A stretch of 64,000 nucleotides of DNA, taken from contig CAZTBM010000005.1 in assembly GCA_964611985.1 (NCBI GenBank), positions 12,403 through 76,402 on the forward strand, given 5' to 3'. This document shows, piece after piece, positions 424-36,715 of this stretch (position 1 is its first letter; every line of letters starts with the position of its first letter). The notes below the pieces were generated by a model, which searched no databases, was not told where the DNA came from, and worked only from the letters and a program-made list of their open reading frames with translations. The DNA is from an uncultured Desulfurococcales archaeon (GTDB lineage: Archaea; Thermoproteota; Thermoprotei_A; CAZTBM01; SZUA-1508). Made by a program: the position numbers and the translations under genes.

Positions 424-1530
424 TTAGACCCTGAGCTCTCTGCTATAGGCTACTTCACCTGCCTCTCTCAAAGGTAAGATTATAGTATTTATGTATGGTA
501 TGTAAACTGTGATCTTCTCTCCACGCTTAAGTACTAAGTCAGAGCTTACATTAGCTAGAATTGCTGTTTTCCCAATCTTTATTCTAAGCTCTGTGTAAGG
601 GCCAGTGAATGAAACCCAGTCTATTATACCATTAAATTCATTGGATGGCTTATTTAGTTTTTCTATGTAAAAATCTTCAGGCCTTAATATTATCGCAACT
701 TCTTCGTCTATTTTAACCTTTATATCACGAGCTGGGATGACTCCAGTGATTTTGTGATCCCCATGTAGTACTGTAACCATATCCTCTTTAATTGAGTGTA
801 CGATTCCCTTAAGAATAGTACATCGACCTAAGAATGAGGCAACGAAGAGGTTTTGTGGACGTCTGTAAACTTCCCGAGGCTCACCTACTTGCATTATTCT
901 ACCTTGATTCATTACTGCTATCCTATCAGATATGACCATAGCCTCTTCTTGGTCATGTGTTACATATATTGCTGTTATACCAAGCTTCTTTTGCAGTCTT
1001 TTGATTTCTTCTCTCATTTCAATTCTAAGTTTAGCATCAAGATTACTTAGTGGCTCATCTAATAGTAGGACTCTCGGCTCTATTACTAGTGCTCTTGCTA
1101 AGGCTACACGTTGCTGTTGACCACCACTAAGCTGAGTAGGATATCGATTTTCTAATCCTCTAAGTTTGACTAGTTCAAGTACTTCTAGCACCTTTCTCCT
1201 AATCTCCTCTTTAGGTACTCTCCGTATCTTTAACCCATACGCTATGTTGTCAAATACTGTCATGTGAGGCCATAGTGCATAGTTCTGAAAAACCATTCCA
1301 GTATTTCTCTTATATGGTGGCAGTTCAGTTACATTCTCATCATCAAAATATATTTCACCTTCATCCGGATATTCTAAACCAGCAATAATCCTTAAGGTAG
1401 TTGTTTTTCCACACCCACTAGGTCCAAGAAATGTAAAGAACTCTCCATGCTCAATCTTTAGTGTTATCCTGTCTGCTGCTATTACTTCGCCAAACCTTTT
1501 TGTTATATTTTTTAATGTCACGGTTACCAT
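424..1530 (-). CDS. ABC transporter ATP-binding protein (PotA/MalK/FbpC-like importer ATPase with C-terminal regulatory/OB domain)
   Basis: Walker A GPSGCGKTT, ABC signature LSGGQQQRVALARAL, Walker B LLLDEPLS and H-loop YVTHDQ. It lies 3 nt downstream of the permease gene. Confidence 0.9.
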   Translation of the reverse strand: MVTVTLKNITKRFGEVIAADRITLKIEHGEFFTFLGPSGCGKTTTLRIIAGLEYPDEGEIYFDDENVTELPPYKRNTGMVFQNYALWPHMTVFDNIAYGLKIRRVPKEEIRRKVLEVLELVKLRGLENRYPTQLSGGQQQRVALARALVIEPRVLLLDEPLSNLDAKLRIEMREEIKRLQKKLGITAIYVTHDQEEAMVISDRIAVMNQGRIMQVGEPREVYRRPQNLFVASFLGRCTILKGIVHSIKEDMVTVLHGDHKITGVIPARDIKVKIDEEVAIILRPEDFYIEKLNKPSNEFNGIIDWVSFTGPYTELRIKIGKTAILANVSSDLVLKRGEKITVYIPYINTIILPLREAGEVAYSRELRV

Positions 1531-1533
1531 GGT

Positions 1534-3420
1534 TTAGACACCTAGGAAGGCTACTCTCTGTTTAAGTATATAGTTTGAAACTGTAATAGCTATTATCTGT
1601 AATGTCATGAGGAGTACTCCTAGAGCAGCAGCTATGCTTACTGTTCCTACAGCTGCACTAGCATAGATGAGCTGGCTCATCTCGAAAGTTATTGGTCCTT
1701 GAGCTGGGTTAAGGTTACTAAGAGTTATGCTTGTGCTGACTTCACTCATAGAGTAAACGAAAGATAATATTGCTCCGCCAATTATATTAGCTGAAATTAA
1801 AGGTAGAACTATTCTAAAGAATGTTACTGTGCGGCTAGCTCCTAGGTTAAGTGATGCCTCTTCTAAACTTACATGCGTTTGCTGTAAACCGGCGAAAACT
1901 GCTCTAACTGTGAATGGAAGTCTACGAACAGTATAAGTAAATATGAGTAGAAGGCCTGGGTTAATGAAGGGATCAAGCGGCGTTTCAGAGAACACTACGC
2001 TAAAGAATACAAGATAGCCTACGGCAACAATTATTCCAGGAACTGCTATAGGTATTGTTGATAGGGCATCAAGAAAATCTCTTCCAGGTATGCGTCTACG
2101 TGCAACAACATATGCCGCGCTTGTACCTACAAGCACGATTAATAGTACTGCCGACCCAGCATACATCATACTATTCATTATTGATCTAAGAACTTCAGAT
2201 TTAGAAATTAACGAGTACAAGTATTCAGTTGTAAACTTTGTTGGATAAGGTAATCCACTAATGCCCCAATCAGTAAAAGCTAGTAAGACTACACCTATTT
2301 GAGGGTATGCTGAGATTATAACTAATGGTATAAGGAAAGCATAGATCGCTATGAGTCCTTTAATTTTTGGTCTTCTTACTCTAGGACTCCATCTTCCACC
2401 TTTACTTAACATGGCATATTGCTTTAGAGTTACATACTTCTTTATTCCAAGAAATGCTGTTGCCGCTAGTAGCAATAATATGACTGCCAAAGCATACGTA
2501 GTTGGGTGTACCTGTCCTAATTGTGACGCTTTACGAAATTCATCATAGATCTTAAATGATATAAGCTTAGTATAAAGTCCTTCTCCGAAGGCCCCACTTA
2601 AACCTATAGGTGCCCCAAGATCCTCCATACTAAATATGAAGACTATTGTAGCGCCAGCCATAAGCCCAGGGAGTGCTAGAGGTAGTGTTACTGTTCTGAA
2701 TAGTTTAAACCCTTTGGCACCAAGGTTTTCGGCTTGCTCCTCTAATGAGGGATCAATATTGATAATAGCTGATAAAGTGTTTAAATAAACTATAGGGAAA
2801 TAGCTTAATGTTTGTATAAGTATTACAGCTGGTAAACCGGAAATTATTATCCTATATGGAATTATATGTAATGTATCAAAAAATATATAGTTTAATAGAC
2901 CATAGGGTCCAAGCACTCTACCTAACACATACGCGTTAACAAATGGTGTAGCAAGCATAGGAATAAGCAATACCACTCTAAATAACATTTTACCTGGAAA
3001 ATCATATCTTGCCATAATGAATGCTGCTACAAGCCCTAATATAGATGTGAATATCGTGACAACTACCGCGACGAATATAGTATTAAGTATATATCCGAAA
3101 TCAGGTCCCTCAACTCCTATAGCTAATATTCTTTCAGTTACTAGTACTCTTGACCCGTTAGGTAAGATTCTGAATTTATATCTCTCCTCTACCTTAATCC
3201 AAGTGCCTTTAGGAGGTATCTTTATCATTTCTTTATCAGATGCTATATCTTCAAAATGTTTAAACGTAAAAGAGCCTTCATGAATAAACGCGCTTACGAG
3301 CATTGAGAATATAGGTACGAGTAAGAAAAAAATCAGAATGGAAAATGCTATTATGACTTGTATTATAGTTAGTCTATCAAATTCTCTTCTTAGCAGTTTT
3401 ATTCGCTGCGCTAATTGCAT
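1534..3420 (-). CDS. ABC transporter permease, fused double-domain type (FbpB/ThiP-like, about 12 TM)
   Basis: 628 aa and highly hydrophobic, with two repeated permease halves. It sits in an operon between the binding protein and the ATPase. Confidence 0.85.
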   Translation of the reverse strand: MQLAQRIKLLRREFDRLTIIQVIIAFSILIFFLLVPIFSMLVSAFIHEGSFTFKHFEDIASDKEMIKIPPKGTWIKVEERYKFRILPNGSRVLVTERILAIGVEGPDFGYILNTIFVAVVVTIFTSILGLVAAFIMARYDFPGKMLFRVVLLIPMLATPFVNAYVLGRVLGPYGLLNYIFFDTLHIIPYRIIISGLPAVILIQTLSYFPIVYLNTLSAIINIDPSLEEQAENLGAKGFKLFRTVTLPLALPGLMAGATIVFIFSMEDLGAPIGLSGAFGEGLYTKLISFKIYDEFRKASQLGQVHPTTYALAVILLLLAATAFLGIKKYVTLKQYAMLSKGGRWSPRVRRPKIKGLIAIYAFLIPLVIISAYPQIGVVLLAFTDWGISGLPYPTKFTTEYLYSLISKSEVLRSIMNSMMYAGSAVLLIVLVGTSAAYVVARRRIPGRDFLDALSTIPIAVPGIIVAVGYLVFFSVVFSETPLDPFINPGLLLIFTYTVRRLPFTVRAVFAGLQQTHVSLEEASLNLGASRTVTFFRIVLPLISANIIGGAILSFVYSMSEVSTSITLSNLNPAQGPITFEMSQLIYASAAVGTVSIAAALGVLLMTLQIIAITVSNYILKQRVAFLGV

Positions 3421-3435
3421 TTTTCATAGCCTCTT

Positions 3436-5196
3436 TTAGCTGCCTAGTAGTTCTTTGAGCTTACTTTCTACAGCTAAGTATCTCTCTTCTGCAGCTTTTC
3501 TCCACGCCTTAACTAAGTCCATTCTATAATAGGCATCCTTTATTATTAGTGGGTTAATTTTCTGTGCAAATTCCTGTGTGAATGTTGCCTCCTTCCCAGT
3601 CTTTGGATCAATGAATTTAAGCTTTGACGGATTACCTAACTCGTCAATTAGCTCTTTGAAGGTTTTAGCGTTTATTTTACCCTTGAGCCTAGCTATCGCT
3701 AGCTCTTTCCAGACCTTCTGTAATGTATCATGTGGTAATGTTATTGCCGCATGGAAGAACCATCTTAAGGCCTCTTCATATGATAATGCTAATTCATCAC
3801 TAAACTCTATTGTTGATGCTTTTAATGTACTCTTATATGCTTCATAAAGATCTGATCTCTTTTTGCCTTCGGGGGTCTCAAATACTTTAGCATTTACTGG
3901 CATACGATTAATGTTTTCATCGAGCCATATCTTTTGTCCTTCGACGCTTAGAACCCAAGCTATGAATGCTTGTGCCGCTTCTGGATGTTTGCTTGTAGTG
4001 AGCAGTGCTATTGGATCACCATTAACTATTGTTCCATCCTTCGGCAGGATGTACTTACATATTCCTGGATTCTGTATTTGAGCTGTGTAGCCATAGAAGT
4101 CTATTGTTATACCTACACCGATATCTCCTCTTATAACAGCGTCTCTCACAAGCCCTGACTGATCGTATATTCTTGAGTTAGCACCCATTAGCGTTATTAT
4201 CTTCCATCCTTCATTCCATCCATAAGCTTGTACAATGATTTCATACATTCTAGTATTACTTGTACTTCTTGTTGCATCTGCGACGCCCACACTTGGAGCA
4301 GGGAGCGTTATCGCATAAGTTTCGTTAGCTAGACTTATCCATGAATCTGGCATTGGCAGACCCATTTTCTCAAGGTACTTCTTATTTATTGTAAAGCCGA
4401 AGGACGCTATTGCAGCTGCAACCCAGACTATTTTACCTTCTTTATTTAACCTCTTCATTGATGAGCCTGCAATATTGTCTGGTATTTCTTTAATGACTTT
4501 CATAACCTCATCACTTGATAGCGGGGCTAAAAGGCCCTCCATATTCAACATATCAAAGAGTGTTGGACCCCCACCCCAGGCTACGTCGATTTCCTTACCA
4601 GGCTTCTTTGCGCTAAGCTTGATTAAGTCTATCCACTGGCTTGGGTCTACAGGTAACCATCTGATATCAACAATTCTGTATTTCTTTGCTAATTCACTTT
4701 TAAGAAAGGCCCCTTTAGCTCTATCCAATATATCATAGCCATGTCTAGTTATCACTCTTAATACTACTTCCTCTGTAGGCGTAGGAGTAGGTGACGTAGT
4801 TGTTGTGGTTGCGGTAGTTGTCACCGTAGTTGTCGGTGTTGTAGTTGTAGTAGTGGCTGTTGTTGTCGTAGTTGTTACTGTTGTGGGGGTCGTTACAGTT
4901 GTTGTAGCAGGAGTCGTAGTTTTTGTTGGTGTAGTAGCTGTAGTAGTCTCAGTTACTGTTGTGGTAGTTATTTCTGTTGGTGTTGTTGTCGTAATTGTTG
5001 TAGTAGTTGTTGTGATCGTGGTAGGTGTATATGTGGTTGTAGGTGATGTTACTGTTGTGGTTGTTGTGGTTGGTGTTGTCTCTACCGGTTTGGGCTTGAA
5101 TACATACTGTGAGACAGCGAATATAGAGGCTACTATTACTACAAGTATGACTATTCCGATTATCATTCTAGAGCTAACAGCTTTATACGCGACCAT
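3436..5196 (-). CDS. ABC transporter substrate-binding protein with N-terminal membrane anchor and ~100-aa Thr/Pro-rich stalk
   Basis: N-terminal TM segment IIGIVILVVIVASIFAV is followed by a poly-Thr linker (aa 40-141) and then a periplasmic-binding-protein-like domain. It is the first gene of the ABC operon. Confidence 0.8.
   Translation of the reverse strand: MVAYKAVSSRMIIGIVILVVIVASIFAVSQYVFKPKPVETTPTTTTTTVTSPTTTYTPTTITTTTTTITTTTPTEITTTTVTETTTATTPTKTTTPATTTVTTPTTVTTTTTTATTTTTTPTTTVTTTATTTTTSPTPTPTEEVVLRVITRHGYDILDRAKGAFLKSELAKKYRIVDIRWLPVDPSQWIDLIKLSAKKPGKEIDVAWGGGPTLFDMLNMEGLLAPLSSDEVMKVIKEIPDNIAGSSMKRLNKEGKIVWVAAAIASFGFTINKKYLEKMGLPMPDSWISLANETYAITLPAPSVGVADATRSTSNTRMYEIIVQAYGWNEGWKIITLMGANSRIYDQSGLVRDAVIRGDIGVGITIDFYGYTAQIQNPGICKYILPKDGTIVNGDPIALLTTSKHPEAAQAFIAWVLSVEGQKIWLDENINRMPVNAKVFETPEGKKRSDLYEAYKSTLKASTIEFSDELALSYEEALRWFFHAAITLPHDTLQKVWKELAIARLKGKINAKTFKELIDELGNPSKLKFIDPKTGKEATFTQEFAQKINPLIIKDAYYRMDLVKAWRKAAEERYLAVESKLKELLGS
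4774..5079 (-). repeat. low-complexity Thr/Pro-rich coding tract (probable O-glycosylated stalk)
   Basis: About 100 consecutive codons are dominated by ACN (Thr) with scattered Pro, Val and Ile. On the plus strand this reads as GTN-rich poly-Val. Confidence 0.85.
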
Positions 5197-28070: not shown

Positions 28071-28361
28071 TTACTTTTTGAGTATTGTTATTTCGATTGT
28101 TGATACTCTTGATTGTCTTCCCTCTGGTCCTTGTACTGTTTGGCTGCCGATCTTGATCTCCTTTACCTCTATTTGTCCTGGTAGGAATCTGTTTCTTACT
28201 ATCTCTACTGTGTCTACTGCTTTGCTTATTGCTCTTCCTCTAGCCTTTACTACGATCTCGTTTACTCCCTGGTTTAGTAGAGTTAGAGTTGCTAATACGT
28301 AGTTCATTACGGGCTTCTTTCCAACTAATACTACATTGCTTGGGGCTGGAGCTTCTGCCAT
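28071..28361 (-). CDS. albA: chromatin protein Alba (Sso10b family)
   Basis: [51 protein letters not shown] is the Alba signature, and the 96-aa size fits. Confidence 0.9.
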
Positions 28362-28482
28362 TGCTAAAACCTCTAGGTTGTTGTCGTAGGCTCTTTTAGA
28401 TTATACTCAGATATAAAGTTTACCATAGAAACTCTTAGTGACTATTAATTCTCTAGTACACAATAGGTTATTTAGAGCATGT

Positions 28483-30738
28483 TTAGGCTATTGCTTCACC
28501 ATACGGTTTTTCCTCAATTTCGACTTTAATTCCCTTTAGTATCTCTTCCAGTATTCTTATCGCTCCTTTACGTGACAATAGTCTATTATTATTACCGCAG
28601 TATGGTGTATAAATACATCTGGGGCACCCATCTACACATGAGCATGAAGTTAGCATCTTATATGCTCTCTTTAGGGCTACCTCAAAATTGGAATATAGTA
28701 GTTTTGAAAGTCCACTTCCACCAGGGTTGCTATCATAAACTATTATGTGTCCCGAGGGGTAACTTAATCCTCCAAGATCACTTGGAGAGGCACCAATGAT
28801 AGTTTGAGCTGCCAGTATGATTGCATGTTCAAAAGCGTGATATGCCTTTATTGCATATTCTATGTTCCAATCTTCGATTTGAGGAAGCCTAAATGTCAAT
28901 GCTTTAGTCTTAAATGTGTACTTTATTGGTTTACTTAGTATACTCTCTCCTATGGTTTCATATGACCTATAATCTTTAACTATGAATCCGTATACTTCCT
29001 CTGTAATTTCTATGTCTGCATATTCTATATCCATACCGTATTCTGTACTTCTTCGACTAATCTTCTCAATGGCATTCACTTCTCCAGTGTATAGGGCTAC
29101 AGTATAGTATGGTATAGTATAGGGTAGCTTTTTTACTATGGCTCTTCTCTTATTAATGTCGAAATCTAAAGACTCGTAAAGTTCGCCACCTAAGAGATAT
29201 ATTGCATGTGGATGTAACTCTTTCATAGCCATTGGCATTTCGCGAAAACCTAAATATACTCCCCTATCATCAAATATTGATATTATTATACCGGCCCCTC
29301 TTAGACTGATATTTTCTCGAACAAATCTTATGGCCTCTCTTGTAGGTATGATATATTTCCCTCTACGAGTCAAATAACCTTCTCTTATGAGGTCCCCTGT
29401 GACCTTTTTTGTAAAATCGTCTAACTCCTCTATTCTAATCCATTTATCTCTACTCATACTTATGATTTGGATTCTTGCTACTTCTTCATTTCTTAGTTCT
29501 AACGCTACGTCATCTGGTTTCGAGTTAAAGAATTCAGTAGGATAATTCTCGTAGTAATAACTTATGGGATCTTCACCGAGTATTGTAAAGACATACGATT
29601 TTTGACCTCTTCTACCACATCTACCTATTCTTTGAAGATATCTGGAAAATGTTGGCGGTATATTAACGAGTATTACTGAATCTAAATCTCCTATGTCGAT
29701 ACCAAGTTCTAAGGTGGGTGTTGCCACTACAGCTTTAATAAGCCCTTTCTTGAAGTATTGTTCTACAGTGATCCTAAAGTCTATTCTTAAACCAGCTCTG
29801 TGAACTTCAAGAGGTACATTTCTCTCTGTAGCCATCCTCTTGAGTAATTCTACAGTCTTATGACTATCAGCAAATATTATTGTTTTCAGATTATGCTCAA
29901 GGAGAACTCTGAGTAGTTCTATTGCTTCAGCTAAGCGAGATCTATAAAGAGGCCTTAACATTACATGGTAAATTGGCCCTCTCTTTCCTTTATTTGAAGA
30001 AACTAATTCGACTTTTTCAGAGAATAATTTTGATGCATGTTCTATGGGATTGCCTATGGTTGCTGATGATCCTATGAGAATCGGCCTATCCCTTATTATT
30101 CTCTTTAACCTTCTGATAATGTATGCTACATGACAGCCGAAAACACCTTCATAGGTGTGTAACTCATCTAGAACAATAAACTTTACATTTTGGATAAGCT
30201 CCCTAAATTTACGGACTTCCTGTAATGCTATATGTATCATGTCAGGATTTGTTATTAGGATTTGCGGTGGTTTCTCATATATTCTCCTTCTCTCCTTTTG
30301 CGGTGTGTCACCATCATATATTGCACTGTAGAGGCCAAACATAGGTCCTATTAGTTTCTCTATTTTCCTATACTGGTCTCTTGCTAGAGCCTTTGTAGGA
30401 TAGATTATCAATGCAGTAGTACATGGAGGTTTACGAGTTAAGATGTAGTCAAGTATTGGTAATAGGAAAGCTTCTGTTTTACCTGCACCCGTACCTGCAG
30501 TTATAACTATTGATGACCCATCTTTGATTTTCTTTATTGCTTCAAATTGAAACTTGTATAGTCTCGATATTCCAAGCTTTTTGAGTCTATCCTTCAGCAC
30601 AGGATTTATATCCAATTCGTCGACTGGTGGTCCATACTCTGGTTCCATGGAGGGCTCGTAATGTATGTAGACTATTCTATGGGCTTCATCAGCTTTAATC
30701 TCTTCTATCACTTCATCTACTGGGGGTAACGTACTCAT
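28483..30738 (-). CDS. DEAD/DEAH-box helicase with C-terminal DUF1998 Cys-cluster domain (YprA/MrfA, COG1205-like)
   Basis: Motif I AGTGAGKTEAF, motif II VLDELH, SSAT, motif VI QRIGRCGRRG, and C-terminal CSCVDGCPRCIYTPYCGNNN. Confidence 0.85.
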   Translation of the reverse strand: MSTLPPVDEVIEEIKADEAHRIVYIHYEPSMEPEYGPPVDELDINPVLKDRLKKLGISRLYKFQFEAIKKIKDGSSIVITAGTGAGKTEAFLLPILDYILTRKPPCTTALIIYPTKALARDQYRKIEKLIGPMFGLYSAIYDGDTPQKERRRIYEKPPQILITNPDMIHIALQEVRKFRELIQNVKFIVLDELHTYEGVFGCHVAYIIRRLKRIIRDRPILIGSSATIGNPIEHASKLFSEKVELVSSNKGKRGPIYHVMLRPLYRSRLAEAIELLRVLLEHNLKTIIFADSHKTVELLKRMATERNVPLEVHRAGLRIDFRITVEQYFKKGLIKAVVATPTLELGIDIGDLDSVILVNIPPTFSRYLQRIGRCGRRGQKSYVFTILGEDPISYYYENYPTEFFNSKPDDVALELRNEEVARIQIISMSRDKWIRIEELDDFTKKVTGDLIREGYLTRRGKYIIPTREAIRFVRENISLRGAGIIISIFDDRGVYLGFREMPMAMKELHPHAIYLLGGELYESLDFDINKRRAIVKKLPYTIPYYTVALYTGEVNAIEKISRRSTEYGMDIEYADIEITEEVYGFIVKDYRSYETIGESILSKPIKYTFKTKALTFRLPQIEDWNIEYAIKAYHAFEHAIILAAQTIIGASPSDLGGLSYPSGHIIVYDSNPGGSGLSKLLYSNFEVALKRAYKMLTSCSCVDGCPRCIYTPYCGNNNRLLSRKGAIRILEEILKGIKVEIEEKPYGEAIA

Positions 30739-30756
30739 TAAGGGTTATTCCCCTAT

Positions 30757-30921
30757 TCATTCTTTTACTCCATGGTATACTAATGCTTTAGAGTGGGGTA
30801 AGTGAACGGCTTCTTCAACCCTAATACCTACTTTACTTAGAGTTACGTATATTCTCTCCTGCCAAACCCTATGCATTCCAGCAAACACCGATATTGTACC
30901 ACCATTCTTAAGTAGCCTAGC
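30757..30921 (-). pseudogene. C-terminal fragment of a disrupted class I SAM-dependent methyltransferase
   Basis: The frame reads ARLLKNGGTISVFAGMHRVWQERIYVTLSKVGIRVEEAVHLPHSKALVYHGVKE*. It continues the N-fragment that ends ...SFLAKLARVL at 32290. An in-frame TGA lies just upstream and there is no start codon. Confidence 0.65.
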
Positions 30922-30938
30922 GTAGCAGTTTCATTTTT

Positions 30939-30957
30939 CGTAAGCTTTAATAGACAT
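30939..30957. repeat. terminal inverted repeat, gene-distal (3') end of the element
   Basis: CGTAAGCTTTAATAGACAT on the plus strand. It overlaps the TnpB-like stop codon. Confidence 0.55.
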
Positions 30958-31975
30958 TTATGGATTTAAGTGCTCTATACGCCAGTATGTATGCTGATAC
31001 TGTATGTGTATCAAGCCTTAGTTTTCTGGCTATTAGCTCAGCATCTTGTGAAGAAAATGCAGGATTTACCTCGCAAAATTTCTTACCTCTCTTCGCTACC
31101 ATTACCTTAGCATGAGTAAGTAATTGTTTCTTAGAGAACTTACTCAACTTTCTATTAATATTTTTATTAGATGTCTTCTTTCTCTTTATCTTTCCTAATT
31201 TCTCAAATACGAAGTACTCGACATCATGGTAACATGCATAATCTATCAACTCTGATAGAGCTTTAAGTCTGATATCCTTAGCTTTCTCCTTAGGAAAGCC
31301 ATGTTGTGTAACTTCTGGGAAATGTTTAACTTTGAAATCCAATAGTTCTCCATTACTGTTAATTATAGCCATGTTTATTCTATCCGTATTTAAATCGAAG
31401 CCAGCAACATGCAGAGATTTTCCTTTTCTGCCAACCTTCTTACCTAGATATTTGGCGTATAGTTCAAGTGGAACATATACATGTATTTTATAATATTCTC
31501 CAATCTCGACTCCATAGCTTACATTCCTCCTAGATAGCTCTTTCAATAGCGGAATGTATCTTTTGCCAAATTTCGCTTTACATTCTATCCATTCATGTCT
31601 TCCATTTGCATGTGGTATCTTTATCTTAACAATAAAGTAATTATCCGAGGGAATTAACCTAATATTCCTGTTCCCCTTTTCAGCGGATTTTCCAACACTG
31701 AAAAGGAACTTTTTCCTTAATTTCAAATAGGGCTGGTTTTCCCACAGCTTAGCTCTTTGGTATGCTGAATGCCCATAGTGTGCGTTAGAGATAAAAGACG
31801 TTAATCTCTTCTCGATATCCTTCCAAGCTAATCCTTTCCTTGTTAAATAATGTGCCATTTTAACCGCATCTCTGAATAGCCTCATGGTATATAGTAATTT
31901 ACTCCTAGCTATATTATCCATAATCAGTAGTTTTCCATTTACTGCTAAGTACTCTTTCCGTGCTTTTCTAGCCAT
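30947..31975 (-). CDS. TnpB-like (IS200/IS605 OrfB family) RuvC-fold protein lacking the zinc-ribbon
   Basis: RuvC-I HVAGFDLNTD, RuvC-II YFVFEKLGKIK, then LSKFSKKQLL...KFCEVNPAFSSQ (TnpB pattern vdPayTSq). The CxxC...CxxC segment is replaced by AELIARKLRL before DTHTVSAYILAYRAL (RuvC-III-like). Confidence 0.7.
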   Translation of the reverse strand: MARKARKEYLAVNGKLLIMDNIARSKLLYTMRLFRDAVKMAHYLTRKGLAWKDIEKRLTSFISNAHYGHSAYQRAKLWENQPYLKLRKKFLFSVGKSAEKGNRNIRLIPSDNYFIVKIKIPHANGRHEWIECKAKFGKRYIPLLKELSRRNVSYGVEIGEYYKIHVYVPLELYAKYLGKKVGRKGKSLHVAGFDLNTDRINMAIINSNGELLDFKVKHFPEVTQHGFPKEKAKDIRLKALSELIDYACYHDVEYFVFEKLGKIKRKKTSNKNINRKLSKFSKKQLLTHAKVMVAKRGKKFCEVNPAFSSQDAELIARKLRLDTHTVSAYILAYRALKSINVY

Positions 31976-32097
31976 AATCTTATCGCCTCTTCAACGGCTT
32001 CTGCTAATGCCCCCTTCTTAACCCCTTTCACTTCCAAAACTTTTCTTCTAAATTCTATTGCTAGATCTTTATCGATTTTAACATGGATTATACTCAT
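31945..32097 (-). CDS. ribbon-helix-helix (CopG/Arc-like) DNA-binding protein
   Basis: MSIIHVKIDKDLAIEFRRKVLEVKGVKKGALAEAVEEAIRLWLEKHGKST shows a beta-strand, helix, Gly, helix pattern. The track ORF extends to 32133, but the internal ATG at 32097 is more plausible. Its 3' end overlaps the TnpB-like ORF. Confidence 0.55.
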   Translation of the reverse strand: MSIIHVKIDKDLAIEFRRKVLEVKGVKKGALAEAVEEAIRLWLEKHGKST

Positions 32098-32257
32098 ACA
32101 CTCAAACACCAAAATACTAATATAAGGCAACACTTATGAATTCTTCGGGTAAGCGAGACTGATGATGCATCGAGGTCAATGAGAATTAATGCACCCACAT
32201 TCGCCGAGGGAGGAAGACCTCCGTAGGAGGGTGTGGGGAAATTCAGGGGTAATGAAT

Positions 32258-32289
32258 ACTTACGTAGGTCTATTAATGTCTACGTAAGT
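32258..32289. repeat. hairpin at the gene-proximal end of the element
   Basis: Perfect 10-bp arms ACTTACGTAG (32258-32267) and CTACGTAAGT (32280-32289) separated by 12 nt, lying exactly at the junction with the methyltransferase sequence. Confidence 0.55.
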
Positions 32290-32841
32290 AAGAACCCTAG
32301 CTAGTTTGGCAAGAAAACTCTCACTATATAATCTCGGATTTTTATTAGGATTCGGACCCCCATCATGGATTATATGATCAAAAACGTCGGGTATCATATC
32401 AACTGCTTTAAGAGCATCAGCCCATGCAACTTTTACTACATTACTATTTAGCGCTTGCATATATTCCTTGATAGGGTTTGAGAATAAAGCTATAGCCAAC
32501 ATAGTTAATGACTTGTCCAATGATAAGTAAAGTGAGGGTGAAGTATTCTTTACTACAATGAAACATGTTCTACCTAAACCTGTACCTACCTCTAACACTT
32601 TTGGTTTAGACTTGACAACCTCAACCCATGATATAATTACCCCTGCAAAGTTCATTTCCAAAATGTTCAGCTCGCCACCTTTATAGCCTAAACCACCAGT
32701 TATTTCATCAATTATCCTTAACTTTTCACCATAGTCTATATGAGCTATATATTTTAGATAATACTGTCTAGCTTTGGCCCTAGTAATTTTATCAGCTGTA
32801 TTGTAATCTCCTTGTTGCAGGTACTTGTATATCTCGTTCAC
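32260..32841 (-). pseudogene. N-terminal fragment of a disrupted class I SAM-dependent methyltransferase
   Basis: Motif I LEVGTGLGRT and post-I/IV region FDHIIHDGGPNP...SFLAKLARVL. The frame then reads 9 element-derived codons (TYVDINRPT) to a stop. The expected LKxGG motif is missing here and is found in the fragment at 30757-30921. Confidence 0.7.
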
Positions 32842-32920: not shown

Positions 32921-35900
32921 GTGCTAACACTTAATATTCTTAAACTTAAGGTTAATGCGTTATTGGTGTACAGTGACTTGATACCACACATAATATTGGG
33001 CTTTTGCCCTAATTGTAATGGTGATATTGAAGCATCAAGGTTAAGGTACGGATTACCCTGTAGTAAATGTTTACCACTGAGCAGAGAAGAGTATGAAAAA
33101 CTGATTAGTTTCGAGAGAGAGGAGAGACTAAATAAGGTACTTAATCTTTTACATAAGAATGGTAATGTAGGCAACTTGTGGAGATTATGGTTTATTGAGG
33201 AAGAATTAAAATCATTTAGTGAGTTCTTTGAAAAGGCGACTAAAAGAAGATTGTGGAGTATTCAGCGAACATGGGCTCGCAGATTATTCCTCGGTGAAAG
33301 CTTTGCAATAATTGCTCCGACTGGTGTGGGTAAAACCACGTTCCTCTCTGCATTTACTTTATATTATGCACTTAAAGGTAAAAAAGTCTACTTTATAGTG
33401 CCTACTAGAGTTCTTCTAAAACAGGTTTATGAGAAGATCTTAAGAATGCTAGAAAATGTTAACTGCCAGCTTAAGATAATAGCTTTAGGCATAAATAATA
33501 TAAATAAAGCTGAATTGGACATCTCAAAGTATGATGTAGTAATATCTTCTGCAACTTATTTATCTAGAAATTTCAAACTATTCACTAGTAGCAAATTTGA
33601 CCTGATAATAGTTGATGATGTCGATGCTCTTCTTAAAAACTCAAAAAATGTTGATAGAGTACTCTTATTACTAGGTTTTAATCAAGACGTGATAGACAAG
33701 GCATATAAACTCGTTATTGCGAAAATCAACCTATTTAAAGCATTGTCTGAAGGTAACAATGAGAATTATAAGAAGTATAAAGAGAAAGTTGAATCACTGA
33801 GAGTTGAAATAGATAAATTCCTTTCAGAGAATAATGTTGGCCAGTTGATAGTATCTAGTGCTACAGGTCGTAGTAGAGGATTAAAGGCTAAAGTATTTAA
33901 GGAGTTATTAGGCTTCGAAGCAGGTTGTGTAATGGAGTACTTAAGAAACGTAACAGACGTGTATGATGAAGCACATAGCCTTAATGAGATGATAGATAAA
34001 ACTATCAGATATGTTAAAATGTTTGGTAAAGGAGGATTAGTGTTTGTAGCACATGACTTAGGGCTTAAAGTCGCTTATATGATCAGAGATAGGCTTGCAG
34101 AGAATGGTGTTAAAGCAGAATTAGCGGCTTCAGGAAGAAGAGGCTACATTGAAAAGTTTAGTCATGGCGAAGTAGAGGTACTTGTAGGTGTCGCTTCATA
34201 CTATGGTGTTATTGTTAGAGGCTTAGACTTACCTCACATAGTTAGATATGCTATTTTCGTCGGTGTACCAAAGTTCAAGATAGACTTCACAAAAACTATA
34301 AGAAACCCCATTAAGCTATTCACAGTCATAAGCATACTCATAGACCTTGTTAATAATGATGGTGACAAAGCAAAACTTGTTGAATATTCAAATAAGCTAA
34401 AGAAACTACTATTCAAGTTAAGCTATAGCGAGATCAGACTAGTACATAAAGCGCTTGAAGGCAAAATAAATGTTGAAGGATACTTAAGGAAAGTTAAAGA
34501 GTTCCTCGAAGAAATAGGAAATTATGTAAATAAGCTTGTCAACACTTATGAGGTTAAAGAGAAGCTCGTTAGAAGCAATAGAATAACAGTTATAGATGAT
34601 AATGGCAAACTTTACGTTGTTGTACCTGATTACTTAACATATATTCAGGCAAGTGGTAGGACGTCACGATTATTCTCTAATGGTATGACCAAGGGCTTAG
34701 CTTTGACATTAGTTGACGATATGAGAGTTTATAATTTGTTACTTGAACAACTCTTACTCCACATAGACTCATTTAGTGCAAAACATGTGTCTGAAGTCAA
34801 CCTAGAAAAACTATTCAATGAGATAGATAGGGATAGAGAAATAGTAAAGGAAATGTTGATTAATGATACAGGAGTTAAAGTAAAAGATCCATTAAAGAGC
34901 GCTTTACTCATAGTGGAATCGCCTAACAAAGCCAGAACTATAGCTAGCTTCTTTGGTAAGCCTTCAAAAAGGAGATTTGGCAAGATAGTAGTTTACGAGG
35001 TTGTATTAGGCGATCCCATGTTAGGTACAGAGGACTACATGCTATCAATAGTTGCAACAAGAGGACATATACTTGACCTAACAACAGACAATAAAGGGTA
35101 CCATGGTGTACTACTAGAACCCGAAATAATGCCCATATACGAGACCATAAAGAGATGTCGATCCTGTGGATACCAATTCACTAAAGGAGACATTTGTCCA
35201 CGCTGTAAATCAAGTAATATCAGAGATTCTATTGAAATAGTACACCTACTAAGAAAGTTAGCCATGGAAGTAGATGTAGTGTTTATAGGTACAGACCCTG
35301 ATACTGAAGGAGAGAAGATAGCTTGGGATGTTTATGTGTCAATTCAACCTTATGCAAAGAACGTATATAGAGTGGAGTTTCATGAAATCACAAGAAATGC
35401 TATCGTATGCGCACTTACTAATCCTAGAATGATAGATGAGAAGCTTGTTGAGGCTCAGATTGTTCGTAGGGTTGAGGATCGTTGGATTGGTTTTGAGCTT
35501 TCATCTAGGTTGTGGAGGGTTTTCGGAAAACACTGGCTATCAGCAGGAAGAGTACAAACACCAGTACTAGGATGGATAATACAAAGACAGAAAGAATGGA
35601 AAGAAGGAAGAAGAGTTTTTGTTAAGTTAAATTACGAAAAGGGGATATCAGTTACATTAGCATTAGAGCCTAAATTAAGGGCGGTAAAGGAGGAATTACC
35701 CAAATTAAACAGAGCAAACATACTTCACATAGAGGATTATATTGAAGAGAAAAATCCGCCTCCACCATATACGACTGATAGTATATTATTCGATGCCTCT
35801 TGGAAATTAAGACTAGACGCAACTAAGGCCATGAAGATACTTCAAGAACTATTCGAAGCCGGATTAATAACTTATCATAGAACTGATAGTATTCATGTGT

Positions 35901-36715
35901 CAGGTAAAGGTTTCCAGATAGCTCAACAGTACTTAGCTTCACAGGGCTTACATCATCTTATTCAGAACAGGAGTTGGGGCCCTCATGGGACTCATGAGTG
36001 TATAAGACCCACGAGACCTATTGATGCGGAAACCTTGAGAAGAATGATTGTAGATGGAACCTTTAGAGTTCATGTTAGGCTATCTGAAATACATTTGAAG
36101 GTGTATGACTTGATCTTTACAAGGTTCATGGCAAGTCAAATGAAACAAGCAAAGGTGAAAAGAAGGAGGGTCATGCTTATGATAGGTGATAGAGTAGAGT
36201 CATTTGATGAAATAATTGATGTCTTAGAAGAAGGCTATACTCGCATATTAAGTGTTGACGTGAATAAGGAGTTGGAGAACCTGAGAGTTGGAGATATACT
36301 GAAACTGGTCGATTACACGGTATGGAAGGGCTCACTCTACCCGCTATATAAACAAGGTGACGTAGTAAAGTTGATGAAGGAGCGCGGTCTAGGTAGGCCG
36401 TCAACATACACAAAAATACTCGCATCATTATTACGACATGGATATCTATTTGAAACTAAGAGAAAATATCTCGTAGCCACGAAAATGGGCACTCTAGTAT
36501 ATGAATATTTAACAGCTAATTTTGACCAACTAGTTTCAGAGGAAAGAACAAGAATAGTTGAAGAAGTAATGAGGCTAATAGAAGAGGGCACCTTAAGCGC
36601 AAAACAAGTATTAAGAATGTTCCTAGAGGAGATCTCAAGCATAACAAGTGAAAAGCCGGAGAAAATAATAGACATAAGAGAAACCATATCTAAACTCTCA
36701 ATTACGGTTGCTTAG
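32921..36715 (+). CDS. rgy: reverse gyrase (helicase-like domain fused to type IA topoisomerase)
   Basis: N-terminal zinc finger CPNCNGDI...LPCSKC, helicase motif I APTGVGKTT and DDVD, a Toprim/topo IA part with IVESPNKARTI, a second zinc ribbon CRSCGY...CPRC, then TDPDTEGEKI and ITYHRTDS (catalytic Tyr). The true start is probably the TTG at 32978 (MIPHIILGFCPNC). Confidence 0.95.
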   Translation: MLTLNILKLKVNALLVYSDLIPHIILGFCPNCNGDIEASRLRYGLPCSKCLPLSREEYEKLISFEREERLNKVLNLLHKNGNVGNLWRLWFIEEELKSFSEFFEKATKRRLWSIQRTWARRLFLGESFAIIAPTGVGKTTFLSAFTLYYALKGKKVYFIVPTRVLLKQVYEKILRMLENVNCQLKIIALGINNINKAELDISKYDVVISSATYLSRNFKLFTSSKFDLIIVDDVDALLKNSKNVDRVLLLLGFNQDVIDKAYKLVIAKINLFKALSEGNNENYKKYKEKVESLRVEIDKFLSENNVGQLIVSSATGRSRGLKAKVFKELLGFEAGCVMEYLRNVTDVYDEAHSLNEMIDKTIRYVKMFGKGGLVFVAHDLGLKVAYMIRDRLAENGVKAELAASGRRGYIEKFSHGEVEVLVGVASYYGVIVRGLDLPHIVRYAIFVGVPKFKIDFTKTIRNPIKLFTVISILIDLVNNDGDKAKLVEYSNKLKKLLFKLSYSEIRLVHKALEGKINVEGYLRKVKEFLEEIGNYVNKLVNTYEVKEKLVRSNRITVIDDNGKLYVVVPDYLTYIQASGRTSRLFSNGMTKGLALTLVDDMRVYNLLLEQLLLHIDSFSAKHVSEVNLEKLFNEIDRDREIVKEMLINDTGVKVKDPLKSALLIVESPNKARTIASFFGKPSKRRFGKIVVYEVVLGDPMLGTEDYMLSIVATRGHILDLTTDNKGYHGVLLEPEIMPIYETIKRCRSCGYQFTKGDICPRCKSSNIRDSIEIVHLLRKLAMEVDVVFIGTDPDTEGEKIAWDVYVSIQPYAKNVYRVEFHEITRNAIVCALTNPRMIDEKLVEAQIVRRVEDRWIGFELSSRLWRVFGKHWLSAGRVQTPVLGWIIQRQKEWKEGRRVFVKLNYEKGISVTLALEPKLRAVKEELPKLNRANILHIEDYIEEKNPPPPYTTDSILFDASWKLRLDATKAMKILQELFEAGLITYHRTDSIHVSGKGFQIAQQYLASQGLHHLIQNRSWGPHGTHECIRPTRPIDAETLRRMIVDGTFRVHVRLSEIHLKVYDLIFTRFMASQMKQAKVKRRRVMLMIGDRVESFDEIIDVLEEGYTRILSVDVNKELENLRVGDILKLVDYTVWKGSLYPLYKQGDVVKLMKERGLGRPSTYTKILASLLRHGYLFETKRKYLVATKMGTLVYEYLTANFDQLVSEERTRIVEEVMRLIEEGTLSAKQVLRMFLEEISSITSEKPEKIIDIRETISKLSITVA

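Follow-up and report, generated by a model that had tools for sequence, protein, structure and literature searches.

How does a gene that is uninterrupted in its orthologues come to lie in two pieces on either side of a small nuclease gene? The question is posed by a stretch of DNA of 64,000 nucleotides (the window) from an uncultured Desulfurococcales archaeon (assembly GCA_964611985.1, contig CAZTBM010000005.1, positions 12,403 to 76,402 of the forward strand). The initial annotation of the window, made from its sequence alone, held that an S-adenosylmethionine (SAM) methyltransferase gene is split by an element of ~1.35 kb that carries a ribbon-helix-helix (RHH) gene, a TnpB-like gene, and inverted-repeat ends. 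We find that the methyltransferase gene is indeed split by a discrete insertion, and that deleting 1,380 bp rebuilds it exactly. We consider it probable that the insertion is recent and that the inserted DNA is an element of the IS200/IS605-OMEGA kind that lacks a transposase gene, belongs to the archaeal RHH/MazE-TnpB branch (clade RIIIr-4), and has a divergent guide RNA that is read out of it. Coordinates are those of the window throughout, and the genes concerned are on the minus strand (Table 1).

The N-terminal fragment of the methyltransferase lies in an open reading frame (ORF) of 193 aa (32260-32841, minus strand) that contains the motif EVGTGLGRT and ends with ...SFLAKLARVL followed by TYVDINRPT; this ORF overruns into the element and reaches its stop codon at 32260. 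In-frame translation of 30921-30757 gives ARLLKNGGTISVFAGMHRVWQ...HGVKE and a stop codon, in which ARLLKNGGTISVFAG... is the C-terminal continuation, and 18 nt separate this stop codon from the ATG of the helicase gene (30738). The ORF list and the translation agree with the initial annotation on all of these points. The N-terminal fragment scored 24.4 bits against Pfam PF05430 (cut-off 22). When the two fragments were joined and used as a query, 71 proteins were retrieved, one of which was the truncated 193-aa form (99% identical) from this same locus. The remaining 70 orthologues are 221-271 aa long (about 235 aa is typical), with alignments over 81-100% of the joined query. Among them, P0002 is the closest, with 237 aa and 67% identity over 100% of the query. 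The orthologue alignments cross the junction without a break (...FL..L..LLK.GGT.S.F.G...), none of the orthologues ends naturally at ...LARVL, and both fragments match the same orthologues. The rejoined protein of 234 aa aligns end to end with the 70 homologues, and the motifs TGG, GTGxGR, and HDGGPNP are invariant.

The locus that encodes P0002 (L076-L078) has the same gene order as the window: an intact methyltransferase gene, a gene for a helicase with an MZB domain 14 nt downstream, a gene for Alba, and a gene for a protein of ~70 aa. At the codon level, L076 reads CTA GTA AGA TTA TTG AGA AGA GGC, and the window minus 1,380 bp reads CTA GCT AGG CTA CTT AAG AAT GGT, with zero gaps. Because the orthologues are uninterrupted, the syntenic locus is intact, and the codons can be rejoined without gaps, we conclude that a discrete insertion has taken place into a conserved gene. 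Both fragments (181 and 53 codons) are otherwise free of lesions, which suggests that the insertion is recent. At high identity, the truncated methyltransferase is the only form that has been sampled: the protein collection contained no near-identical intact methyltransferase (the best full-length match is 67% identical). JGI metagenome contigs were scanned for exact matches to the flanks of the window and of a second copy of the element (L004), each rejoined as in an empty allele, and gave none.

The limits of the element could be defined by comparison with copies at other loci. In blastn comparisons with four copies in unrelated contexts (L002, L004, L005, and L006), the window showed similarity only within 30915/30922-32298/32301, and the similarity between L002 and L004 was likewise confined to the elements. 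All copies start with (A/T)GGGTTC followed by the hairpin, and finish with ...GAAACTGYTAC...AGGC. The copies elsewhere thus bear out the discrete unit proposed in the initial annotation, and they correct its size from ~1.35 kb to 1,380 bp. Sequences repeated at the two junctions, AGGGTTCTTAC... and ...GAAACTGCTACGCT, had been described as target-like, but they are mostly the conserved ends of the element itself, since they are also seen in copies with different flanks; RVL at the close of the N-terminal fragment and the A of ARLL come from element sequence, and only four bases at one end (AGGC in the favored placement) are host sequence. For the same reason, we rejected the interpretation of the junction strings as a diverged target-site duplication of 6-19 nt. 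The 4-mers at the two ends are unequal within copies (AGGG/AGGC, TGGG/AGGC, and AGGG/CAGC), which indicates that there is no target-site duplication. The ends instead co-vary across three subfamilies, in which AGGG occurs with AGGC, ACCG with (G/A)CCC, and (A/T)GGGG with ACGGC, and the 4-nt host motif beside the tnpB-stop end is conserved in all copies of subfamily 1.

Restoration of the reading frame means that exactly 4 nt of the AGGG/AGGC pair are derived from the host, and that the codon at the junction is either GTA (Val) or CTA (Leu). Of the 70 orthologues, 50 have Leu at this position, 10 have Val, and 6 have Ile. Because it is mostly Leu, we favor AGGC as the host 4-mer, which would place the element at 30919-32298; the other way of splitting the AGGG/AGGC quasi-repeat would give 30915-32294.

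The distribution of the copies bears on whether the element moves. The contigs that encode close relatives of the 342-aa nuclease (88-90% and 75-76% identical) otherwise carry genes with no relation to those of the window. The element is 1,378-1,406 bp long in 11 copies, and most copies are intergenic. The flanking genes are unrelated over 71 loci, and in all-against-all ORF clustering none of them recurs beside the element. In addition to a full copy at 2656-4034, L053 contains a protein-free miniature copy of ~270 bp (1035-1305, minus strand) that retains the RNA module described below and the tail, ending in GGAACGGC; it resembles a miniature inverted-repeat transposable element (MITE) or a palindrome-associated transposable element (PATE). 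The clean insertion, the same ends at unrelated sites, the varied flanks, and the miniature copy lead us to infer that the element is mobile, or was so recently, and that it is probably non-autonomous, with no transposase of its own.

Searches for partners and carriers of the element were negative. The element itself contains no Y1 TnpA, and none was found in the window or in the 75 loci to which the search was confined, with a motif regular expression that is not a sensitive method. IMG/VR contained no viral carriers of the element, and a comparison of L002 with L079 and L080 as a possible empty site from the same genome revealed no DNA similarity. In L056 (1085-1213, from a metagenome-assembled genome [MAG] of Acidilobus), a tRNA-Thr(GGT) gene (1138-1213, minus strand) adjoins the tnpB-stop end with its own 3' end. 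In the copy at L006:3001-4028 (from Thermoproteota MAG S9B1_HD70, 75% identical), a frameshift interrupts the nuclease near residue 301, which implies that some copies are decaying.

Table 1. Features of the split methyltransferase locus (window coordinates)
Feature	Start	End	Strand	Description
Inserted element	30919	32298	-	1,380 bp; order on the minus strand: RNA module, promoter region, small DNA-binding gene, tnpB, short tail
GCCT (AGGC on minus strand)	30915	30918	+	host 4-nt target beside the tnpB-stop end; predicted TAM-like motif
RNA module	32154	32298	+	five helices, ~150 nt; proposed omega-RNA-like scaffold leaving the element at 32298
Flank AGCTAGTTTGGCAAGAAAAC	32299	32318	+	predicted guide portion, antisense to the 3'-terminal part of the N-terminal methyltransferase fragment; from TnpB/Cas12 geometry and strand evidence
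Hairpin	32257	32290		perfect 11-bp stem (32257-32267/32280-32290), 12-nt loop, 8 nt from the element end
Inverted-repeat arm, tnpB-stop end	30936	30955		partner 32268-32287; 20 nt, 16/20 (80%)
Promoter/operator region	32101	32153		two TATA-like boxes, 32133-32142 and 32117-32126
Small RHH-like gene	31945	32097	-	50 aa from ATG 32097 (50-62 aa, start 32097/32133); 3' end overlaps the tnpB start
TnpB-like nuclease gene	30947	31975	-	342 aa; SSO2105/PF27229 family; no zinc finger
Methyltransferase, N-terminal part	32299	32841	-	181 codons; MnmC-family/Methyltransf_30; aligned with residues 1-181 of uninterrupted orthologues
Methyltransferase, C-terminal part	30757	30918	-	53 codons and stop; first codons AGG CTA CTT AAG; matches orthologue C termini
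Helicase	28483	30738	-	downstream host gene outside the element; DEAD/DEAH, Helicase_C and MrfA zinc-binding MZB (DUF1998) by Pfam; 751 aa

The identification of the nuclease as TnpB-like is upheld by profiles and by structure prediction. The protein scored 33.8 bits against NCBIfam TIGR01766 (cut-off 32); its match to guided_TnpB (34 bits) is under the cut-off of 100 and stops at residue 310. The precomputed Pfam label in the protein collection is PF27229, SSO2105_N, and our literature search under SSO2105 retrieved no paper. An AlphaFold model of the protein had a predicted local distance difference test (pLDDT) score of 83, and its best Foldseek matches in the PDB were Cas12f, Cas12k, ISFba1 TnpB, ISDra2 TnpB, and RuvC (E 8e-8 to 7e-4). 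The family profile also matches the RuvC-II region of Cas12X (E 6e-7). A Pfam match to Hydrolase_3 (HAD) over residues 200-314 (22.9 versus 20.9 bits) was judged to be spurious, as it covers the RNase H-like region and the fold search gives Cas12f, TnpB, and RuvC. The model thus assigns the protein to the TnpB/Cas12 (RuvC) superfamily, with a predicted split RuvC/RNase H fold and an N-terminal part that resembles WED/REC.

An alignment of 16 diverse members of the family showed that D194 (in GFDLNxDR), E258 (in FVFEKL), and D322-x-H324 (in LDxHTASAY) are invariant, and the gene encodes an intact, compact RuvC nuclease. The same alignment contains no conserved cysteines, and NPAFSSQ runs directly into DAELIARKLRLDTH, from which we conclude that the zinc finger of ordinary TnpB proteins is missing. 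These properties are those of RHH/MazE-TnpB, clade RIIIr-4, described as archaeal, without a zinc finger, altered from Asp to His in RuvC-III, and predicted to be active (Altae-Tran et al., 2023, PNAS, PMC10691335). D322-x-H324 would fit the published Asp-to-His description, and either of the two residues may be the catalytic one. The same authors called the clade non-mobile, named a long 3' untranslated region (UTR) as the candidate guide, and proposed a toxin-antitoxin pair (PMC10691335). We regard non-mobility and the long 3' UTR as descriptive features of the clade, and the element belongs to it irrespective of them. When 1.84 billion representatives were searched exhaustively with the family profile, 53 proteins passed a threshold of E <= 1e-30, and 316 passed E <= 1e-10. 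The distant relatives (P0245-P0337) are 400-550 aa long, with one of 1,208 aa, and match profile positions ~80-340 only; a larger clade may exist, with the compact 340-aa form at its reduced end.

The ~170 nt from the hairpin end of the element to the small gene are conserved above the level of the coding sequence, and nhmmer finds the stretch that contains the RNA module upstream of proteins that are just 35-55% identical. When RNAalifold was applied to a plain MAFFT alignment of 12 copies, it predicted 27 pairs on the gene-sense strand, 14 of them with compensatory changes. A covariance model built from this prediction located the module in ~50 of 74 loci, at a constant place and in a constant orientation relative to tnpB, and gave one match in the 64-kb window. 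In the structure-fitted alignment, 92.8% of cells were paired, versus ~44% when the partners were slid, and compensatory double changes were present at 30 of 30 pairs.

We also compared the two strands. For the antisense strand, the unfitted MAFFT alignment gave 37 pairs in RNAalifold, of which 18 covary, and 96.4% of the cells of that alignment were paired, versus 37-51% with the partners slid. Two invariant U-G pairs, one position that alternates between C-G and U-G, and the lengthening of a helix to 16 bp were found on the antisense strand only. On the gene-sense strand, A:C mismatches (69) outnumbered G:U pairs (42), despite the fitting of that alignment to the sense model. Folding was more stable on the antisense strand in 50 of 51 loci, by a mean of 14.4 kcal/mol; the energies for the window are -53.7 (antisense) and -45.1 kcal/mol (gene-sense), with z ~-4.5 for both. 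The strand opposite the genes is rich in G, and the gene-sense strand averages 53 C versus 34 G. The pattern of G-U pairs, the excess of A:C on the gene strand, and the folding stability all point to the plus strand as the functional one, and the RNA would therefore run from 32154 to 32298, outward from the element.

Structure of this kind was confined to the hairpin end. At the tnpB-stop end, where a 3' omega-RNA would be expected, RNAalifold predicted zero pairs for the final 160 nt of 12 copies, and the tail past the tnpB stop codon is 20-35 nt long. A search of Rfam with 30500-32700 (E <= 10) matched no family beyond chance. A hammerhead-like string on the plus strand, CUGAUGAG, was discarded as unsupported, with no Rfam match. 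In the literature, we found no paper that describes an upstream antisense guide for the RHH/MazE-TnpB clade.

Between the RNA module and tnpB lies the small gene that had been annotated as RHH. The RHH-like ORF is present, and its match to Pfam RHH_6 is weak (17.5 bits, under the cut-off of 27). The same 50-aa gene was called in L001, L002, and L004, and a gene of ~50 aa is found directly upstream of tnpB in 49 of the 50 loci examined. Its product is not always of the same type: an RHH-like protein (23 loci by tblastn, with weak matches to Pfam RHH_6) occurs in the subfamily of the window and in several others, some loci encode a MazE/AbrB protein (PF04014, 38-47 bits, above the cut-off), and there are two further unassigned kinds of ~50 aa. 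The small gene has therefore undergone non-homologous displacement at a fixed position. Small genes of these various types lie ~130-180 nt upstream of tnpB in L007-L012, L014, L015, L023, L025, and others, and one of the unassigned types reads ...YVFHARISKTSHGLLCIYIPKELSEKM....

The interval that separates the module from the small gene was compared in the sequences of 50 loci. Two arrangements were seen in the relatives. In one, two TATA-like boxes are inverted with respect to each other, as in CTTATATA-N10-TATATAAG; in the other, a palindromic CTTATAAG lies between symmetric tracts, one purine- or A-rich and one T-rich (ACAGAAAGC CTTATAAG CTTTTCTGT). In archaeal promoters, a nearly symmetric TATA box gets its direction from the flanking transcription factor B recognition elements (BRE). 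The region may thus act as a bidirectional promoter that drives the small gene and tnpB rightwards and the RNA module leftwards. The symmetry fits an operator for the RHH/AbrB protein equally well. In bacterial IS605 elements, Arc, an RHH protein encoded by the element, binds and represses intergenic promoters (Moon et al., 2026, 10.64898/2026.09.24.754181).

The hairpin noted at the upstream junction is perfect and occurs once in the window (zero occurrences of an 11-bp hairpin pattern are expected); its stem has 11 bp rather than the 10 first reported. It is helix P2 of the RNA module, with compensatory changes at 12 of 12 pairs across the family, and it is possibly also a hairpin for recognition by a transposase. 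The inverted repeat, initially described as matching at 15 of 19 positions, is real and extends over 20 nt (80%), but it is subterminal rather than terminal, lying 8 and 21 nt inside the ends. Most related copies (including L002, L005, L007, L012, and L025) have it at identical offsets and with bases that co-vary, so it is more than a chance similarity. The repeat consists of one arm of the hairpin and its loop, and within a single strand the hairpin end and the tnpB-stop end could therefore pair with each other. The repeat may be a protein-binding site, or it may bring the two ends together by pairing in an intermediate that is single-stranded. The tnpB-stop end itself has only this half-site, without a convincing hairpin.

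These observations suggest the following mechanism. The module would be transcribed opposite the genes from the bidirectional promoter/operator, under repression by the small RHH (Arc-like) protein. The plus-strand RNA would be the scaffold of a guide RNA, and its 3' end would extend into the flank (AGCTAGTTTGGCAAG..., from 32299) as the guide. In TnpB and Cas12 guide RNAs, the scaffold is universally 5' and the guide 3'. GCCT beside the other end would act as a transposon-adjacent motif (TAM), and the complex of TnpB and RNA would recognize and cut the empty site GCCT/AGCTAGTTTGG... (plus strand). Recombinational repair from a filled copy would then restore the element. Homing or retention of this kind, through cutting and repair, has been demonstrated for canonical TnpB. 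Seen from the plus strand, the geometry would be the canonical TAM-LE...RE-guide (LE and RE, left and right ends), with the protein operon inverted relative to the RNA gene. Insertion at new sites would depend on a single-strand transposase of the Y1 TnpA type supplied in trans, as is suggested by the absence of a duplication, the specific target motif, the hairpin 8 nt from the end, and the miniature derivative.

A more general proposal can be made, to which we would give slightly less than an even chance. RHH/MazE-TnpB would be a class of OMEGA mobile elements rather than toxin-antitoxin systems, in which a guide RNA of ~150 nt diverges from the nuclease operon, shares with it a bidirectional promoter controlled by the repressor, and leaves the element at the opposite end. 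It would serve a hyperthermophilic nuclease of 342 aa that lacks a zinc finger and uses a G/C-rich TAM of 4-5 nt (GCCT here). In the strongest form of the proposal, the nuclease and its RNA would themselves move the element, without a dedicated transposase.

Several points weigh against an OMEGA-type insertion with a divergent guide. Altae-Tran et al. scored the clade as non-mobile by a copy-divergence metric. A motif regular expression and recurrence clustering, neither of which is sensitive, revealed no linked transposase in the window or across 71 loci. The absence of a convincing hairpin at the tnpB-stop end is unlike the ends of classical IS200/IS605 elements. The choice of AGGC over AGGG as the host 4-mer comes from a 5:1 preference for Leu over Val and from the strand evidence rather than from an empty allele. 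The excess of G over C on the antisense strand by itself contributes to a lower folding energy, and a structure of several helices could serve the recognition of single-stranded DNA. The transcription of the module, its strand, its ends, and its guide function are all deduced from sequence.

The layout could instead be canonical: as in ISDra2, a gene-sense guide would lie at the 3' end of tnpB and read past 30919, and the module would be only a transposase-recognition end, an insulator, or a structure of single-stranded DNA. To our knowledge, all characterized TnpB systems have a sense omega-RNA at the 3' end, which counts in favor of such a layout. The short tail contains the conserved GAAACTG motif, and the LE hairpin together with GGGT/ACCC pairing resembles end recognition of the IS608 type. 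A guide in the 3' UTR has also been suggested for this clade (PMC10691335). We nevertheless consider a canonical layout unlikely: there are zero RNAalifold pairs in the last 160 nt and only 20-35 nt past the stop codon, five covarying helices with inserts of variable length exceed the needs of IS200/IS605 ends, and the strand-specific G-U pairs point to the opposite strand. That the locus is an immobile toxin-antitoxin pair (TnpB as the toxin, RHH/MazE as the antitoxin), acquired by horizontal transfer and illegitimate recombination, seems to us quite unlikely. This function was proposed for the clade by Altae-Tran et al. (PMC10691335) and echoed by a 2026 review, and it would suit the two small overlapping genes in a layout like that of toxin-antitoxin loci, the MazE-type partners in relatives, and the patchy distribution. 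It does not account for precise, conserved ends, for the exact reconstruction of the gene on excision of 1,380 bp, for the same ends at unrelated sites beside a conserved 4-nt motif, or for a protein-free miniature copy. The replacement of the small protein by unrelated DNA-binding folds suits a regulator of the promoter better than it suits a specific antitoxin. A toxin-antitoxin role and mobility are nonetheless compatible with each other.

Two other explanations attribute the insertion to a different kind of movement. The conserved, co-varying subterminal inverted repeat of ~20 nt could have been used by a cut-and-paste transposase, in which case the element would be a non-autonomous transposon of the DDE type with TnpB as cargo; associations of TnpB with DDE transposases are known (PMC10691335). 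The lack of a target-site duplication, the unequal 4-mers at the ends within copies, the position of the repeats 8 and 21 nt inside the ends, and the absence of a DDE gene recurring near any copy make this very unlikely. Alternatively, the element could be a mobile intron, either IStron-like or archaeal of the bulge-helix-bulge kind, in which case splicing would remove it from the methyltransferase mRNA and leave the gene functional. It is oriented in the same direction as the host gene, the fragments are free of lesions, the ends can pair, and IStrons that carry TnpB exist in bacteria (PMC10690162). We rejected this idea as scarcely credible, because most other copies are intergenic and their varied flanks preclude a constant exon-intron helix; there is also no match to an intron or ribozyme in Rfam, and the better folding is on the strand antisense to the host mRNA. 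An OMEGA-type element with a divergent guide thus remains our preferred explanation.

The insertion also has consequences for the host genes. The helicase gene has lost its upstream partner gene, and, as the spacing of 14-18 nt between the methyltransferase and helicase genes and the gene order are conserved, it is plausible that a methyltransferase-helicase operon was uncoupled, as the initial annotation had suggested. The element genes are co-directional with the helicase gene, so transcription could read through into it. The block of genes for the methyltransferase, the MrfA-type helicase, Alba, and the ~70-aa protein keeps its order and spacing between the window (28071-32841) and L076:5001-8708, which is from a related genome resembling those of Desulfurococcales. 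In the window, a reverse gyrase gene (32921-36715, plus strand) lies upstream of the methyltransferase gene and is divergent from it.

RHH/MazE-TnpB has so far been known by computation only, and the window provides a clean before-and-after case of insertion. Our results go beyond the published account and in part contradict it: the clade has evidently been mobile, its ends and target motif can be defined, and an RNA module predicted on the opposite strand is present family-wide. The clade is accordingly better understood as one of elements that are mobile or were so until recently. If the module is a guide RNA, it represents a new layout of TnpB loci and explains why no 3' guide is evident. 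The guide and the TAM of a thermostable nuclease of 342 aa would then be predictable, which would be of interest for compact genome editors. The interchangeable RHH and AbrB genes beside a symmetric promoter would carry to archaea the finding that Arc represses IS605 promoters.

With respect to known systems, the insertion is ordinary, and the mobility and architecture of the clade are moderately novel. Elements of the IS608/ISDra2 (IS200/IS605) type insert beside a short specific motif and make no duplication. The element shares with them, and with the tnpB-only IS200/IS605 elements (IS1341 group), the lack of a target-site duplication, a short motif that resembles the terminal bases of the other end, and a subterminal hairpin at one end; like the tnpB-only elements, it encodes TnpB, has no transposase in cis, and has protein-free miniatures resembling PATEs. 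It differs from IS200/IS605 elements in that the candidate guide is divergent from tnpB, there is an additional small regulator gene, the second end has no clear hairpin, the target motif is G/C-rich, and no TnpA was identified. Canonical TnpB has a C4 zinc finger between RuvC-II and RuvC-III and a gene-sense omega-RNA structure at the 3' end, both of which are absent here. As with the omega-RNA of IscB (HEARO), a structured guide-RNA gene would lie upstream of the nuclease gene at the end of the element; there is no sequence or Rfam relation between the two, and IscB uses a gene-sense RNA whose guide is at the 5' end, whereas the RNA proposed here would be antisense with a 3' guide, in keeping with the polarity of TnpB and Cas12. 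In agreement with the published description of RHH/MazE-TnpB (PMC10691335), these elements occur in Thermoproteota and Euryarchaeota, have an RHH or AbrB/MazE gene directly upstream of tnpB, lack the C4 zinc finger, and have an apparently altered RuvC-III (invariant D-x-H here). In contrast to that description (PMC10691335), the locus in the window is a 1.38-kb unit with fixed ends inserted in a gene, only ~30 nt follow the stop codon, and the only conserved structured RNA is upstream and, as far as the strand evidence indicates, on the opposite strand. The bacterial IS605 elements that encode Arc (Moon et al., 2026, 10.64898/2026.09.24.754181) also have an RHH protein of their own beside an intergenic promoter region; Arc represses that promoter, and bidirectional promoters were proposed there. 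Those elements encode TnpA, and arc and tnpA are usually divergent from tnpB (10.64898/2026.09.24.754181), whereas in the archaeal element the RHH gene points the same way as tnpB and has a translational overlap with it, and relatives can have a gene of the MazE/AbrB type in its place.

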